DNA of 32,000 bases, taken from assembly GCA_964510585.1 (NCBI GenBank), contig CAZECW010000126.1:2734-34733 (forward strand). Reading direction: 5' to 3'. Positions 7,625 to 25,972 of the stretch are shown one piece after another (positions within the stretch are counted from its first letter, which is position 1; every line of letters begins with the position of its first letter). The notes beneath the pieces are model-generated. The model saw only the letters and a list, made by a program, of their open reading frames with translations. It was not told the DNA's origin and made no database searches. Origin of the DNA: an uncultured archaeon. Lineage in GTDB: Archaea > Asgardarchaeota > Jordiarchaeia > Jordiarchaeales > Jordiarchaeaceae. Position numbers and translations under genes: made by a program.

Positions 7625-7752
7625 TGCGGCTGCCGGGAATTTCGAAAAAGGGGGGCCCTCTTTTTTTCGAACCCGGGTTACTGGCTTGGGAGGCCAATGT
7701 CCTAGACCAGAATGTCCAATAGTTACCCATACTATTTCTGGACTACAGCCGC
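7625..7752 (-). tRNA. tRNA-Gly(CCC) with two introns: 15/16 (7712-7737, 26 nt) and 59/60 (7639-7665, 27 nt)
   Basis: Acceptor GCGGCTG/CAGCCGC, anticodon CCC at 7690-7688. BHB helices GTCC/GGAC and TTCG/CGAA with 3-nt bulges. CCA not encoded. Confidence 0.93.
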
Positions 7753-13053: not shown

Positions 13054-14232
13054 ATGACCATAGTTTCAATAGTAAAAACCAATGGAAATGTTGAAGAAGG
13101 CGTCAGAAAAGCGGTAGAATTAGCAGGCGGCATCGACATAGAACCTGGCGCAAACATCCTCATAAAACCCAACCTCAGCTGCGCCAAACCATCAGGAAGC
13201 GGCCTAGTCACAAGCGTCGAAGTCATCTCCGCTATGGTAAGACTGGTAAAAGAGATGGGAGGCAAACCCCTAGTCGGAGACCTACCAATCGCCGGCTGGG
13301 ACCCAAAGGAAACATACAAAGTAACCGGAGTCAAAAAAGCAACAGAAGATGCCGGCGGACAATTCATCGACTTCAGCAAAGATCAACCCGTAACCATACA
13401 AATCCCAGATGCCGTAAAACTAAAAAGCGTAAAGCTAGTACGCACCGCACTCATCGCCGACGCCATAATCTCCCTACCCGTCCTCAAAGCACATTTCTTC
13501 ACAGGACTAACATTATGCATCAAAAACCTAAAAGGACTCACACTACAGGACCAAAGAACAAAAATGCATGTCCTAGGCCTATACGACCCTATAATTGACC
13601 TCTTTTCAGCTCTGAAAAGCAAGGTGATATTTGGATTAGTAGACGGCACGGTGGGCTGCGAATCAATAAGACCCTCCGGACCATACTACGGCCCCACCGA
13701 AGGAAAACCCATAAAACTTGATACCCTCATAGCAGGAAAGGACATCGTGGCAGTCGACAGTGTAGCGGCAGTAACTGCAGGAATAAAGCCCAAAAGCATG
13801 AAACTACTCCAAATCGCCTATGAGAGGGGACTAGGAGAAATAGAAGACATAGAAGTAAGAGGAGAAAAAATAAAGCCCCAAAAACTGAAACAAACCCTAT
13901 TTGGGCGAGTCATGGGCAGTCTAAACAGCCTGTGGACGTCCAAAATTGCCAACCCCATAACTCACCCCCTAGTAAAGCGCCTTTTTGGACCACAGGTGCA
14001 AAGTCTACGATCCGTTGAAAAAGAACTCCAAGAAGTCGTTCCCAGCAAAATAGTGCTAGCCGGCAAATGTGACAATTGCGGAATATGCGTCAAGAGCTGC
14101 AGCATAGGCAACATAAAACTGGGCAAAAACGGACCAATAATAGGCGATAAATGCTTGGTGTGCTTAATATGCGTTGAAGCATGCCCTCTAAATGCTTTGG
14201 CGGTTAAAAGGGTTGAGGAGGTTTCAGCTTAG
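13054..14232 (+). CDS. DUF362 domain protein with C-terminal 2x[4Fe-4S] ferredoxin domain
   Basis: ILIKPN, LPVLKAH...LTLCIKNLKG, DIVAVD; CDNCGICVKSC and CLVCLICVEACP. ATG 13054 follows AGGTGA. Confidence 0.88.
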   Translation: MTIVSIVKTNGNVEEGVRKAVELAGGIDIEPGANILIKPNLSCAKPSGSGLVTSVEVISAMVRLVKEMGGKPLVGDLPIAGWDPKETYKVTGVKKATEDAGGQFIDFSKDQPVTIQIPDAVKLKSVKLVRTALIADAIISLPVLKAHFFTGLTLCIKNLKGLTLQDQRTKMHVLGLYDPIIDLFSALKSKVIFGLVDGTVGCESIRPSGPYYGPTEGKPIKLDTLIAGKDIVAVDSVAAVTAGIKPKSMKLLQIAYERGLGEIEDIEVRGEKIKPQKLKQTLFGRVMGSLNSLWTSKIANPITHPLVKRLFGPQVQSLRSVEKELQEVVPSKIVLAGKCDNCGICVKSCSIGNIKLGKNGPIIGDKCLVCLICVEACPLNALAVKRVEEVSA

Positions 14233-15630
14233 TAGCCAGTTGGGTTTTCCTAGATAGTATTTTGTTAAAAATTCGGCGAAGTCCGGATTTTGGAGGTAGA
14301 TGTTGGATATTTCTGTGTTTAGGAGGATTTCGAATTTTTGGGAGATTTTTTCTGCGATGTATTTTCCGAGGCCTAGTGTTTTTATTTTGTTGCGGATTTC
14401 GTGGTCTAGTAGTTTGTCGGCTCTAGTGTGTTGGCGTAGGAGTTCTACTATCCATTTTCCATTTTCTATTCGGGGTCCGGATACTGTTTTGTCTGATTTG
14501 GTGTGTTTTTTTAGGAAGGGGGGTTGGCCGATGCTTCCGGGTGGGGGGCCTAGATGTTTGTATGTTTTGGGGATTGTTATGCTTTCAAACTCTAGTATTA
14601 GGATTGTTTTTTCTTCTCCGGACCAGGCGTCTTTGTTGATTATTTTGAAGTCTTTGGATTCTAGGAAGTTTTTGAGGGCGTCGAGGGATTTGTAGATTTG
14701 GCCCCATAGGGTGTCTGGTGGGATTTTGGGTGTTTCGAATGTTAGGAATAGGGTGTCGGTTCCTTTTTTGTCGTGGAGGTTTTGGAGTTCTTCAGGGCTG
14801 AAGGGTTTGATTTTGTTTGGGAAAAAGAAGGTTTCTCGTGGTTCTTCTAGGAAGGCTTTTGATGCTGCTTTGAATTCTCCGATTTTTTGTTTGGTTAGTG
14901 CTGCGGAGACATTTCTTTTGGGGTCTACTGGGTCAATTACCACTAGTGGTTCGGAAAAAATTTTTTTAATTTCTTTGGTGTTGGTGTAGTGGTTTTCTAT
15001 GTCTATGATGTGTTGTGGTTTCCATTTGATGCATTCCTCGAGGAGGCGTGGGAAGGATGAGTAGTGCATCATCAAGATTTCGCACAGGTATCCAGAAAAT
15101 CCTCCAATTCTTATTTCGGCACCATAGGCATTTATTCCCATTAGGAATTGTTTCAGAAGTCTTACTTCTCTTTTTAAAGATTCGTTAAGATTTTTTTTGA
15201 TATAGGCGGTGTGGAGTGGGGTTCTGTCAACTGAGGAGACTAGTTCCGTGGCGTCGCTGATCTCGAAGCTGGGAACGAAATCAACTTGGAACTCCTCTAT
15301 TTCGGCACGCAGGTATGGGTGTTCGGCATATTTCTCCTCGCCTTTTCCTCCTGTTACTTTTCGCGCAATTTTTAATCCTAATTCTCCGATCTCTTTATAG
15401 GTGTAGGTTCTCGGAAAAACCATGAAAATATCGATGTCTGGATTTGTTTTTATCCAGGTGTCCTTTGCTATGGAACCTACAAGTAAGGGATTGACGGTGA
15501 TGTTTAGATTCACCGCTTCTTCCCTCACCCTTCTAATTAACTCTTGGGATAGGCGTTCTACTTTCATTCTATCTTCTGTTGAAGGTGTAATTTTCTTGGA
15601 TACCTTTTCGCACACTGTTTCTAAATCCAA
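14224..15630 (-). CDS. cca: Class I CCA-adding enzyme (tRNA nucleotidyltransferase)
   Basis: VGSIAKDTW...DIDIF, YAEHPY, SVDRTPLHT, GAEIRIGGFSGYLCEIL, IDPVDPKRNVSAA. Start placed at TTG 15630 (ORF is open to 15660). Confidence 0.96.
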   Translation of the reverse strand: MDLETVCEKVSKKITPSTEDRMKVERLSQELIRRVREEAVNLNITVNPLLVGSIAKDTWIKTNPDIDIFMVFPRTYTYKEIGELGLKIARKVTGGKGEEKYAEHPYLRAEIEEFQVDFVPSFEISDATELVSSVDRTPLHTAYIKKNLNESLKREVRLLKQFLMGINAYGAEIRIGGFSGYLCEILMMHYSSFPRLLEECIKWKPQHIIDIENHYTNTKEIKKIFSEPLVVIDPVDPKRNVSAALTKQKIGEFKAASKAFLEEPRETFFFPNKIKPFSPEELQNLHDKKGTDTLFLTFETPKIPPDTLWGQIYKSLDALKNFLESKDFKIINKDAWSGEEKTILILEFESITIPKTYKHLGPPPGSIGQPPFLKKHTKSDKTVSGPRIENGKWIVELLRQHTRADKLLDHEIRNKIKTLGLGKYIAEKISQKFEILLNTEISNIYLQNPDFAEFLTKYYLGKPNWLLS

Positions 15631-15676
15631 AGTTCGATCCCCAAAAATACACGATACCAATTATAGATATTTAGAC

Positions 15677-16878: not shown

Positions 16879-17475
16879 GTGGAGCTTATGAACGAAAAAA
16901 ATGACTTAGAGGAGGAAAATGAAACAGAAGAGGCGGAAGAAGTAGTAGTAGAGGAAAAGGTGACTGCCCGCCTTAAAGAAGATGCCGTGATAGTCGGGGC
17001 AGAGGATGCTCAGAAGATTTATGAAAAAGGTTTCTATGGAGAAATTCAAGAGGATGGAACCCTCAAACTATCCCCCGTAGAATCACTACTCCTCGTGGAA
17101 AGAAACAGATTAGAAGTACTAAATGATAATAATGAAGTCCTAAATTTTCAGGCTCTTACAAAAATTTTTATGAAATATAATCCCAATCTCTGGTTAAAGT
17201 ATTTAGTCTACAGAGATTTAAGATCTAGAGGGTATGTTGTTAGGTCTGGGTATGGAGGGAATATAGATTTTAGGCTATACCCTAGGGGAGCGAAACTTGG
17301 AACTGACACTTCAAAAAGCCTCATCTACATTGTGAGTGAGGGTGCCCCAATTGGTTTGGAGGAGTTAGACAGAGTCACAAGGTTAGCGGTTTCTACAAGA
17401 AAGAGGTTAACTATGGCTGTGGTGAATCGGCAAGGGGAAGTCACATATTATCAAGTGTCTCAAGTATCGATTTGA
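16879..17475 (+). CDS. endA: tRNA splicing endonuclease subunit, probably the non-catalytic structural (beta) type
   Basis: LSPVESLLL, VYRDLRSRGYVV, DFRLY, RLAVSTRKRL. The catalytic Tyr and His positions appear replaced. Confidence 0.85.
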   Translation: MELMNEKNDLEEENETEEAEEVVVEEKVTARLKEDAVIVGAEDAQKIYEKGFYGEIQEDGTLKLSPVESLLLVERNRLEVLNDNNEVLNFQALTKIFMKYNPNLWLKYLVYRDLRSRGYVVRSGYGGNIDFRLYPRGAKLGTDTSKSLIYIVSEGAPIGLEELDRVTRLAVSTRKRLTMAVVNRQGEVTYYQVSQVSI

Positions 17476-21210: not shown

Positions 21211-21377
21211 TGGTAGCGGGATGTGGATTTGAACCACAGATCTCAGGGTTATGAGCCGACCGCCCTTGCGGTATTCTCCTTAAGGTCTGCGGGATCTCCT
21301 GAGTGGGCTTCCTCTTCTCTCGAAGAGTTCATCTACCTTGGACTTGGACTCTCGATTGAGAATCCATCTATCCCGCT
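21211..21377 (-). tRNA. Initiator tRNA-Met(CAT) with three introns: 10/11 (21338-21367, 30 nt), 15/16 (21303-21332, 30 nt), 29/30 (21258-21286, 29 nt)
   Basis: Spliced product AGCGGGATAGGGTAGTCAGGAGATCCCGCAGGGCTCATAACCCTGAGATCTGTGGTTCAAATCCACATCCCGCTACCA (78 nt). It has the A1:U72 pair and three G-C pairs in the anticodon stem (initiator marks). BHB helices GGAT/GTCC, GGGT/GCCC, CCGC/GCGG. Confidence 0.9.
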
Positions 21378-21421
21378 AACAAGCGCACTCTTCCCGCTAC
21401 GTTTTAGGTCAAGGAATCTTA

Positions 21422-21549: not shown

Positions 21550-21659
21550 TGGTGGGCCCAACGCGATTCGAACGCGCGCCTGCGACCCTTAAAGGAAGCG
21601 TTCCTTTGAAGTCTTTCGGTTATCAGCCGAACGCTCTGACCAGGCTGAGCTATGGGCCC
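21550..21659 (-). tRNA. tRNA-Ile(GAT) with one 32-nt intron at 45/46 (21581-21612)
   Basis: Acceptor GGGCCCA/TGGGCCC, anticodon GAT at 21624-21622, encoded CCA. Relaxed BHB: helix CGAA/GTCG (one A.G), long intron hairpin AAAGGAA/TTCCTTT. Confidence 0.9.
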
Positions 21660-25161: not shown

Positions 25162-25287
25162 GGGCTCATAGCTCAGTGGAAGATTCCCAAAAAAGGAAGC
25201 CAAGAGCGCCTGGTTTGCAGCCAGGAGGCCGCGGGTTCAAAACCACAGAGAAAAACTCAAAAGGTGAAACTCCCGCTGAGTCCACCA
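25162..25287 (+). tRNA. tRNA-Ala(TGC) with two introns: 22/23 (25183-25204, 22 nt) and 59/60 (25242-25270, 29 nt)
   Basis: Acceptor GGGCTCA/TGAGTCC with the G3:U70 Ala identity pair, loop TTTGCAG, encoded CCA. BHB helices TGGA/GCCA (one A.G) and TTCA/TGAA. Confidence 0.92.
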
Positions 25288-25527: not shown

Positions 25528-25578
25528 GTTGTGAAAAAAACTTGTTTTTGCCGTCGTCCAAATTCTCCCAGGATAGGT

Positions 25579-25739
25579 GCCGTCGTAACTATTCACAAAG
25601 AATAGCGACAAGCTTAGCCCGGGAGAGCGTCGGATGCTGCCAGAATCCCTGACAGAAGACGAAACTGAAGATCCGATTGTCGCTGGATGCTGCCAGAATC
25701 ACTGACAGAAGGCGACTTCAAATCCGGCCGACGGCACCA
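25579..25739 (+). tRNA. tRNA-Phe(GAA) with three introns: 9/10 (25588-25611, 24 nt), 30/31 (25634-25663, 30 nt), 53/54 (25687-25716, 30 nt)
   Basis: Spliced product GCCGTCGTAGCTTAGCCCGGGAGAGCGTCGGACTGAAGATCCGATTGTCGCTGGTTCAAATCCGGCCGACGGCACCA. BHB helices GTCG/CGAC, CGTC/GACG, CGCT/GGCG, all with 3-nt bulges. Confidence 0.92.
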
Positions 25740-25864: not shown

Positions 25865-25972
25865 TGGTGCGGCTGCCGGGAGTCTCGGATAAAGGCTGCT
25901 CTCCTTCCTCATTCGAACCCGGGTAACGAGCTTGGAAGGCTCGGGTCCTAAACCAGGCTAGACTACAGCCGC
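25865..25972 (-). tRNA. tRNA-Gly(TCC) with one 30-nt intron at 59/60 (25882-25911)
   Basis: Acceptor GCGGCTG/CAGCCGC, anticodon TCC at 25936-25934, encoded CCA. BHB helix TTCG/CGAG, bulges AA|T and AC|T. Confidence 0.94.

Follow-up and report, generated by a model that had tools for sequence, protein, structure and literature searches.

Predicted removal of intron 1 before intron 2 in an archaeal initiator tRNA whose two overlapping splicing motifs share a five-nucleotide exon

When two introns of a tRNA precursor are separated by an exon so short that their BHB motifs overlap, must one be removed before the other can be cut? The question is raised by the initiator tRNA-Met gene of an uncultured Asgard archaeon (GenBank assembly GCA_964510585.1), which lies on the minus strand (21377-21211) of the 32,000-nucleotide stretch of contig CAZECW010000126.1 hereafter called the window, and which carries BHB introns at tRNA positions 10/11, 15/16 and 29/30. 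A preliminary description of the locus held that intron 1 must be excised and its exons ligated before intron 2. Unspliced, the gene is called neither by ARAGORN nor by Rfam at the gathering score; removal of the three introns leaves a 78-nt tRNA-Met(CAU) that ARAGORN accepts. An A1-U72 pair and three G-C pairs closing the anticodon stem are the identity marks of an initiator, and the pattern combining them with a CAU anticodon has a single match in the assembly, which is this gene.

Exon 1 (positions 1-10, 21377-21368; minus strand throughout the gene) contributes G5-U8 to the central helix of intron 1, GGAU/GUCC, and ends with G10, which completes the helix of intron 2 once ligation has taken place. 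Intron 1 itself (30 nt, 21367-21338) has a 9-bp inner stem and no outer helix (HBh' type). Exon 2 consists only of GGTAG (RNA GGUAG; positions 11-15, 21337-21333), base for base as initially described, and this micro-exon is common to both motifs. Intron 2 (30 nt, 21332-21303), likewise without an outer helix, combines the central strand GCCC (21308-21305) with a 6-bp inner stem and a GAGA loop. Exon 3 (positions 16-29, 21302-21287) is followed by intron 3 (29 nt, 21286-21258; central helix CCGC/GCGG), which is independent of introns 1 and 2 and absent in three orthologues, and exon 4 (21257-21211) extends from position 30 to the encoded CCA, providing the CAU anticodon, the three G-C pairs at the base of the anticodon stem and the U72 that pairs with A1. 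A 5-bp hairpin in intron 3 (21259-21272) competes with that intron's own motif, whose formation costs 4.4 kcal/mol here and 0.9 kcal/mol in the congener G003, where the hairpin is altered. A 4-bp central helix between two 3-nt bulges, with the predicted cut following the second bulge base, is available to introns 1 and 3 in the precursor and to intron 2 after ligation; the strict hBHBh' form is not attained by introns 1 and 2 for want of an outer helix, as is the case for 21 of the 79 independent introns of this genome, by which we mean introns whose central helix lies inside one exon. The motifs arise by chance (four central pairs plus the closing pair) in 0.3-0.9% of intron shuffles each.

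The overlap is intimate. The 3' bulge of intron 1 is AA|G11, and intron 2 needs positions 10-13 opposite GCCC, such that its central helix spans the junction of intron 1, with G10 on one exon and G11-U13 on the next, in six of six orthologues. G11 (21337) does have the dual role attributed to it, being both the third base of the intron 1 bulge and the second base of the intron 2 helix. As long as intron 1 is in place its last A occupies the place of G10, and the helix reads AGGT/GCCC with an A·C mismatch; after ligation it reads GGGT/GCCC, and this predicted change holds in all six orthologues. Given the known geometry of BHB motifs, the shared A(21338) and G11 should prevent the two motifs from occupying the enzyme simultaneously.

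The six orthologues (this genome, G001/G004, G003, G002, G005 and one metagenome contig) have all kept both introns, an identical exon 2, the terminal A of intron 1 and the C opposite position 10, with variation from G-C to G-U elsewhere. The base opposite position 10 is never a U, which would pair with A and G alike. The initiator genes of the sister family are without these introns and nearly identical to the spliced product. Coordinates in the published table of a complete Freyarchaeia genome match G005, and its initiator gene (G005:C1:1729308-1729443, L081) is missing from the 38 tRNAs of that table, as are tRNA-Phe and tRNA-Ala(GGC) genes near 1547 kb. Spliced intermediates were also sought in a metagenome collection, which gave 18 matches, two of them true genomic orthologues (one sequence) and the others due to chance, hence genomic copies only.

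A 23-base segment directly before the tRNA is conserved throughout the genus and missing from the sister family. Read on the minus strand, this leader begins with what we call the decoy (GTAGCGGGA, 21392-21400), which copies the 5' strand of the acceptor stem and pairs with the 3' end of the gene (21221-21213; pair probability 0.97-1.00), thereby freeing G5-U8 for the intron 1 helix; it is invariant in the six orthologues and absent from the sister-family initiator genes, which lack these introns. Next comes the putative clamp, GAGTG (21386-21390), complementary to CAC|TC across the 3' splice site of intron 2 (21305-21301). It takes the very C meant to pair with position 10, is invariant in six orthologues amid variable flanks and, because three of its five target bases belong to intron 2, fits only a precursor that retains this intron. 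The last module, CGCT with a 4-nt loop (21378-21385), forms a hairpin with A1-G4 of the tRNA in the minimum-energy fold and reads CGCT or TGCT in all orthologues. Upstream, also on the minus strand and conserved in congeners, lie one promoter candidate, TTTAAATA (21441-21434), and an alternative made up of a BRE-like AAATAAAG (21438-21431) and a TATA-like CTCTAAGT (21430-21423). Placed by archaeal TATA spacing, the start site is predicted at or upstream of 21400 with either candidate, so that the leader modules would be transcribed.

The energy needed to form each BHB motif was computed by the nearest-neighbour method, which ignores the enzyme, magnesium, tertiary structure and co-transcriptional folding. 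In the full precursor of this gene with the leader on, at 37 °C, the motif of intron 1 (BHB1) is the ground state (0.0 kcal/mol) and that of intron 2 (BHB2) costs 4.3 kcal/mol, which falls to 0.7 kcal/mol after ligation. The corresponding BHB1/BHB2 costs in five orthologues are 0.0/4.3, 0.0/4.3, 0.3/4.6, 0.5/3.9 and 0.0/7.4 kcal/mol at 37 °C. The cost of BHB2 drops upon removal of intron 1 in six of six orthologues, in G005 by only 1 kcal/mol at 37 °C. The 23-nt leader gives the same result, and so does folding at 60 °C, with smaller gaps (2.7 kcal/mol).

In the models of the window's gene, this asymmetry requires both the clamp and the A·C mismatch. The pair probability of the clamp at 37 °C changes from 0.99 before to 0.35 after removal of intron 1, and that of G11 with its C goes up from 0.12 to 0.62 on ligation. 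The cost of BHB2 drops to 1.0 kcal/mol when the clamp is replaced, to 1.2 when the mismatch is repaired and to 0.4 when both changes are made, which argues that the clamp beats a three-pair helix and loses to a four-pair one. Among 300 random 5-mers put in its place, one gives an equally large BHB2-BHB1 gap, for a site that was chosen after the fold had been seen. No covariation was found in the clamp across the orthologues, and in G005 a change of U16 to C breaks one clamp pair uncompensated, with a clamp pair probability of 0.3-0.6. Any sensing of ligation in the nicked intermediate is weak in these models: with three pairs the cost is 2.2 kcal/mol versus 0.7 when ligated here, and is not higher in G005, and the four-pair figure is unreliable as the program lacks stacking across a nick.

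The window encodes a structural (beta-type) tRNA splicing endonuclease subunit (16879-17475, plus strand; TIGR00324 above cut-off), one of two PF01974 genes in the genome; it has Thr at the position of the catalytic His, and the catalytic subunit, on contig C157, has Tyr, His and Lys all present. The window's subunit is 95-98% identical to Jordarchaeia/Freyarchaeota proteins and 80% to that of Ca. Jordarchaeum madagascariense, which places the host within this group of Asgard archaea. EndA of the two-subunit architecture has broad specificity and cuts relaxed motifs (PMC3239211), and the gene content predicts an enzyme of this ability here, together with one rtcB. The sole rtcB gene (G000 contig C58, L063:1561-1590) is interrupted by an insert of 30 nt that contains an in-frame TGA and whose central helix, CCCG/CGGG, is perfect; removing the insert restores the LPDAHQGYGFPIG motif. 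The ligase's own mRNA would need both EndA and ligase for its splicing. The tRNA-rich window that encodes the structural EndA subunit also holds a CCA-adding enzyme (14224-15660, minus strand).

How far motifs are relaxed elsewhere was taken from a census of the tRNAs of this genome (37 genes with 81 introns, every gene being accepted by ARAGORN once spliced), in which ten genes were parsed and ten boundaries corrected by hand, and in which the mismatch counts are if anything low because the search favours good motifs. A central mismatch is present in 16 of the 79 independent introns, and in four of them it affects the outer pair: tRNA-Thr(UGU) at 22/23, the sole intron of its gene (AGGU/GCCA, A·A), tRNA-Tyr at 45/46 (C·A, without an outer helix), and tRNA-Pro(UGG) and tRNA-Lys(UUU) at 15/16 (G·A). 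The other 15/16 introns of the complete congener G005 are mismatched at position 10 in five of six cases, including two Ser introns with G·G and no outer helix; this genome and G005 together give 7 of 11, a figure in which two orthologous pairs enter twice. Motif costs of at least 4.3 kcal/mol occur in 19 of 78 independent introns, and as these must still be spliced, such a cost is not prohibitive. The census also placed further intron-bearing tRNAs in the window: Ile(GAU) with an intron at 45/46 (21554-21659, minus strand) and, missed by ARAGORN, Gly(CCC) with introns at 15/16 and 59/60 (7626-7752, minus), Ala(UGC) at 22/23 and 59/60 (25162-25283, plus) and Gly(UCC) at 59/60 (25869-25972, minus).

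We consider it unlikely that the order is strictly obligatory, i.e. that the A·C mismatch, for which intron 2 has no outer helix to compensate, leaves this intron uncleavable until G10 has been ligated to G11. Obligatory order has been published for nested archaeal introns (PMC3978253), the mismatch and the C opposite position 10 are kept in all six orthologues, and the outer mismatches tolerated elsewhere are mostly G·A or G·G rather than A·C. However, the outer-pair mismatches of independent introns in the Thr(UGU), Tyr, Pro(UGG) and Lys(UUU) genes and the two Ser genes of G005, together with an encoded EndA of the broadly specific two-subunit class, suggest that an A·C mismatch alone is no lock, and without the clamp the unspliced BHB2 costs a mere 1.0 kcal/mol. 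Prior to removal of intron 1, three of the four pairs of the intron 2 helix form, equally relaxed motifs are found in independent introns, and this one is predicted to be masked by the leader.

The opposite reading, that there is no meaningful order, either intron may go first and the mismatch is a mere footprint of the insertion of intron 1 into the helix of an older intron 2, strikes us as quite improbable, even though relaxed helices are as common in this genome as the 16 of 79 indicate. Removal of intron 2 followed by intron 1 would also yield the correct tRNA, BHB1 remaining cheap (0.2 kcal/mol) after intron 2 has gone, and in G002 the two costs (4.8 against 4.3 kcal/mol) predict no preference. 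Yet the BHB2-BHB1 gap amounts to 3.4-7.4 kcal/mol in five of six orthologues, and a leader segment complementary to the splice site of intron 2 has stayed invariant. The order would even be reversed if the leader were either untranscribed or removed by RNase P ahead of splicing: without it BHB1 costs 5.0 and BHB2 1.9 kcal/mol here, and BHB2 is the cheaper motif in all six leaderless orthologues at both temperatures. This route appears very improbable to us, since the leader modules lie downstream of both promoter candidates, do not vary within the genus and are missing where there is no intron 1, and a decoy that holds the 3' end would keep the normal RNase P site from forming.

Of the proposal that intron 1 must precede intron 2, then, the direction is supported by the folding energies in five of six orthologues, and the "must" is too strong, in view of the mismatches tolerated elsewhere and of the dependence on the leader. 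That intron 1 is removed before intron 2, be it by preference or strictly, is in our judgment quite probable. We lean, with less assurance, towards a strong preference instead of a strict obligation, brought about by competition between the leader clamp and the helix that ligation completes; G10 is likely to be the trigger and the leader the lock. A more tentative proposal, which we regard as possible but doubtful, is that the leader acts as a cis-acting switch of splicing order, in which the decoy and a clamp over the 3' splice site of intron 2 persist until ligation of exons 1 and 2 supplies the displacing pair, so that the 5-nt exon would never be cut on both sides at once.

The steps could proceed as follows. 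An EndA of the (alpha-beta)2 type and RtcB would splice the precursor in cycles of cutting and ligation, mostly taking intron 1 before intron 2. By holding the 3' end through the decoy and A1-G4 through the hairpin, the leader would make the intron 1 motif the ground state, and GAGUG would pair across the 3' splice site of intron 2, outcompeting its three-pair, A·C-mismatched helix. Once intron 1 had been cut out and G10 joined to G11, the fourth pair, G10-C, would form, the clamp would be displaced and intron 2 would be cut. In either order, ligation between the two cuts would matter because the 5-nt exon would otherwise be freed as a loose pentamer, with presumably no more than two or three base pairs to hold it.

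The second leader module may have a humbler function. The tRNA-Phe gene of the window (25545-25735, plus strand) has an intron at 9/10 and a decoy leader, to which is added a second conserved module, TCTCCC. This module is complementary to the D-loop of the tRNA and pairs with it in four genomes, and there is no neighbouring intron there to mask. Since such a module exists in the absence of a second intron, that of the initiator tRNA may, by analogy, serve the first intron as a general scaffold and cover the site of intron 2 by happenstance. The same tRNA-Phe gene has twin introns at 30/31 and 53/54. In tRNA-Tyr (G000 contig C4, near 43144-43159, minus strand) the first 12 bases are duplicated 15 nt upstream although none of its introns is near the acceptor stem; this may be a duplication of another kind or a counter-example to the decoy rule.

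Several other ways of parsing the initiator gene were discarded. The duplication of AGCGGGA 21 bases upstream invites a fourth intron in the acceptor stem, and no register of such a 21-nt intron gives a central helix; BHB-like folds of 17 and 19 nt do exist and would produce the wrong 5' end, and the decoy is preferred. An alternative 3' site of intron 1, 6 nt earlier in a tandem GTCCAA, is unconserved and leads to an 81-nt product that ARAGORN rejects. Skipping exon 2 by removing both introns as one 65-nt unit would, at 37 °C, cost 10-17 kcal/mol in every orthologue.

As to how this arrangement arose, a genome with just one of introns 1 and 2 was sought to date their gain and none was found among the six, so we can only infer which came earlier. 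The intron 2 strand matches a continuous exon at positions 10-13, while the clamp has its full target only in an RNA that bears intron 2; these sequence relations suggest that intron 2 was gained first and that intron 1, with its leader, was later added within the helix of intron 2 (last in, first out). Each of the two introns is preceded by GG(A/G)TAG, and their weak likeness (rank 10 of 1540 intron pairs) is suggestive only, allowing local copying between them without demonstrating it.

Ordered removal of overlapping BHB introns is already known, and the addition predicted here is the leader clamp. Ordered and obligatory splicing of nested archaeal pre-tRNA introns has been published (Sugahara 2007; Tocchini-Valentini 2009; as related in PMC3978253 and PMC3728597), and the accounts given there resemble the present case in that a BHB is completed once the other intron has been removed and the exons joined, in cycles of EndA and ligase. 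They differ from it in that the dependent motif of the initiator tRNA is already three-quarters paired, making for partial dependence, in that its sites (10/11 and 15/16) lie at the junction of acceptor and D-arm, and in that the apparent leader lock is absent from the summaries in those two papers. A clearer and stronger case of dependent splicing is tRNA-Ala(GGC) (G000 contig C140:33871-33991, L099), where introns at 33/34 and 37/38 flank a 4-nt anticodon exon and the second helix goes from two of four pairs (7.3 kcal/mol) in the unspliced to four of four (0.8 kcal/mol) in the spliced state, conserved in five congeners. In the red alga Cyanidioschyzon merolae, intron order determined by RT-PCR of intermediates correlates with BHB free energy (Soma et al. 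2013, PMC3728597), and to that extent it is like the order predicted here, whereas the enzyme is eukaryotic, the motifs fold independently without being nested and no role of a leader has been reported. Split tRNAs of Nanoarchaeum equitans and Caldivirga (PMC4033280) likewise use the pairing of flanking non-tRNA sequence to organise a BHB substrate, but in their case the flank assembles the motif in trans and EndA then removes it, whereas the initiator leader would act in cis, supporting one motif and masking another. No leader-based splicing switch was found in the open-access library searched.

Interrupted tRNA genes of Freyarchaeia, Jordarchaeia and Atabeyarchaeia have been described (PMC11291895; preprint 10.64898/2026.10.13.758758), and the present genome is like them in its intron load, about 2.2 per gene as in the preprint, and in D-arm introns that standard tools miss; none of the words nested, sequential, leader and initiator occurs in the text of the preprint. 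The initiator gene thus adds a further example of overlapping introns, in the gene of an essential single-copy tRNA, which a published table of the lineage does not contain. If the leader clamp is real, a pre-tRNA leader would sense the completion of one splicing step before permitting the next, which would account for the ability of intron-rich Asgard archaea to accommodate introns a mere five bases apart and still keep the exon between them.
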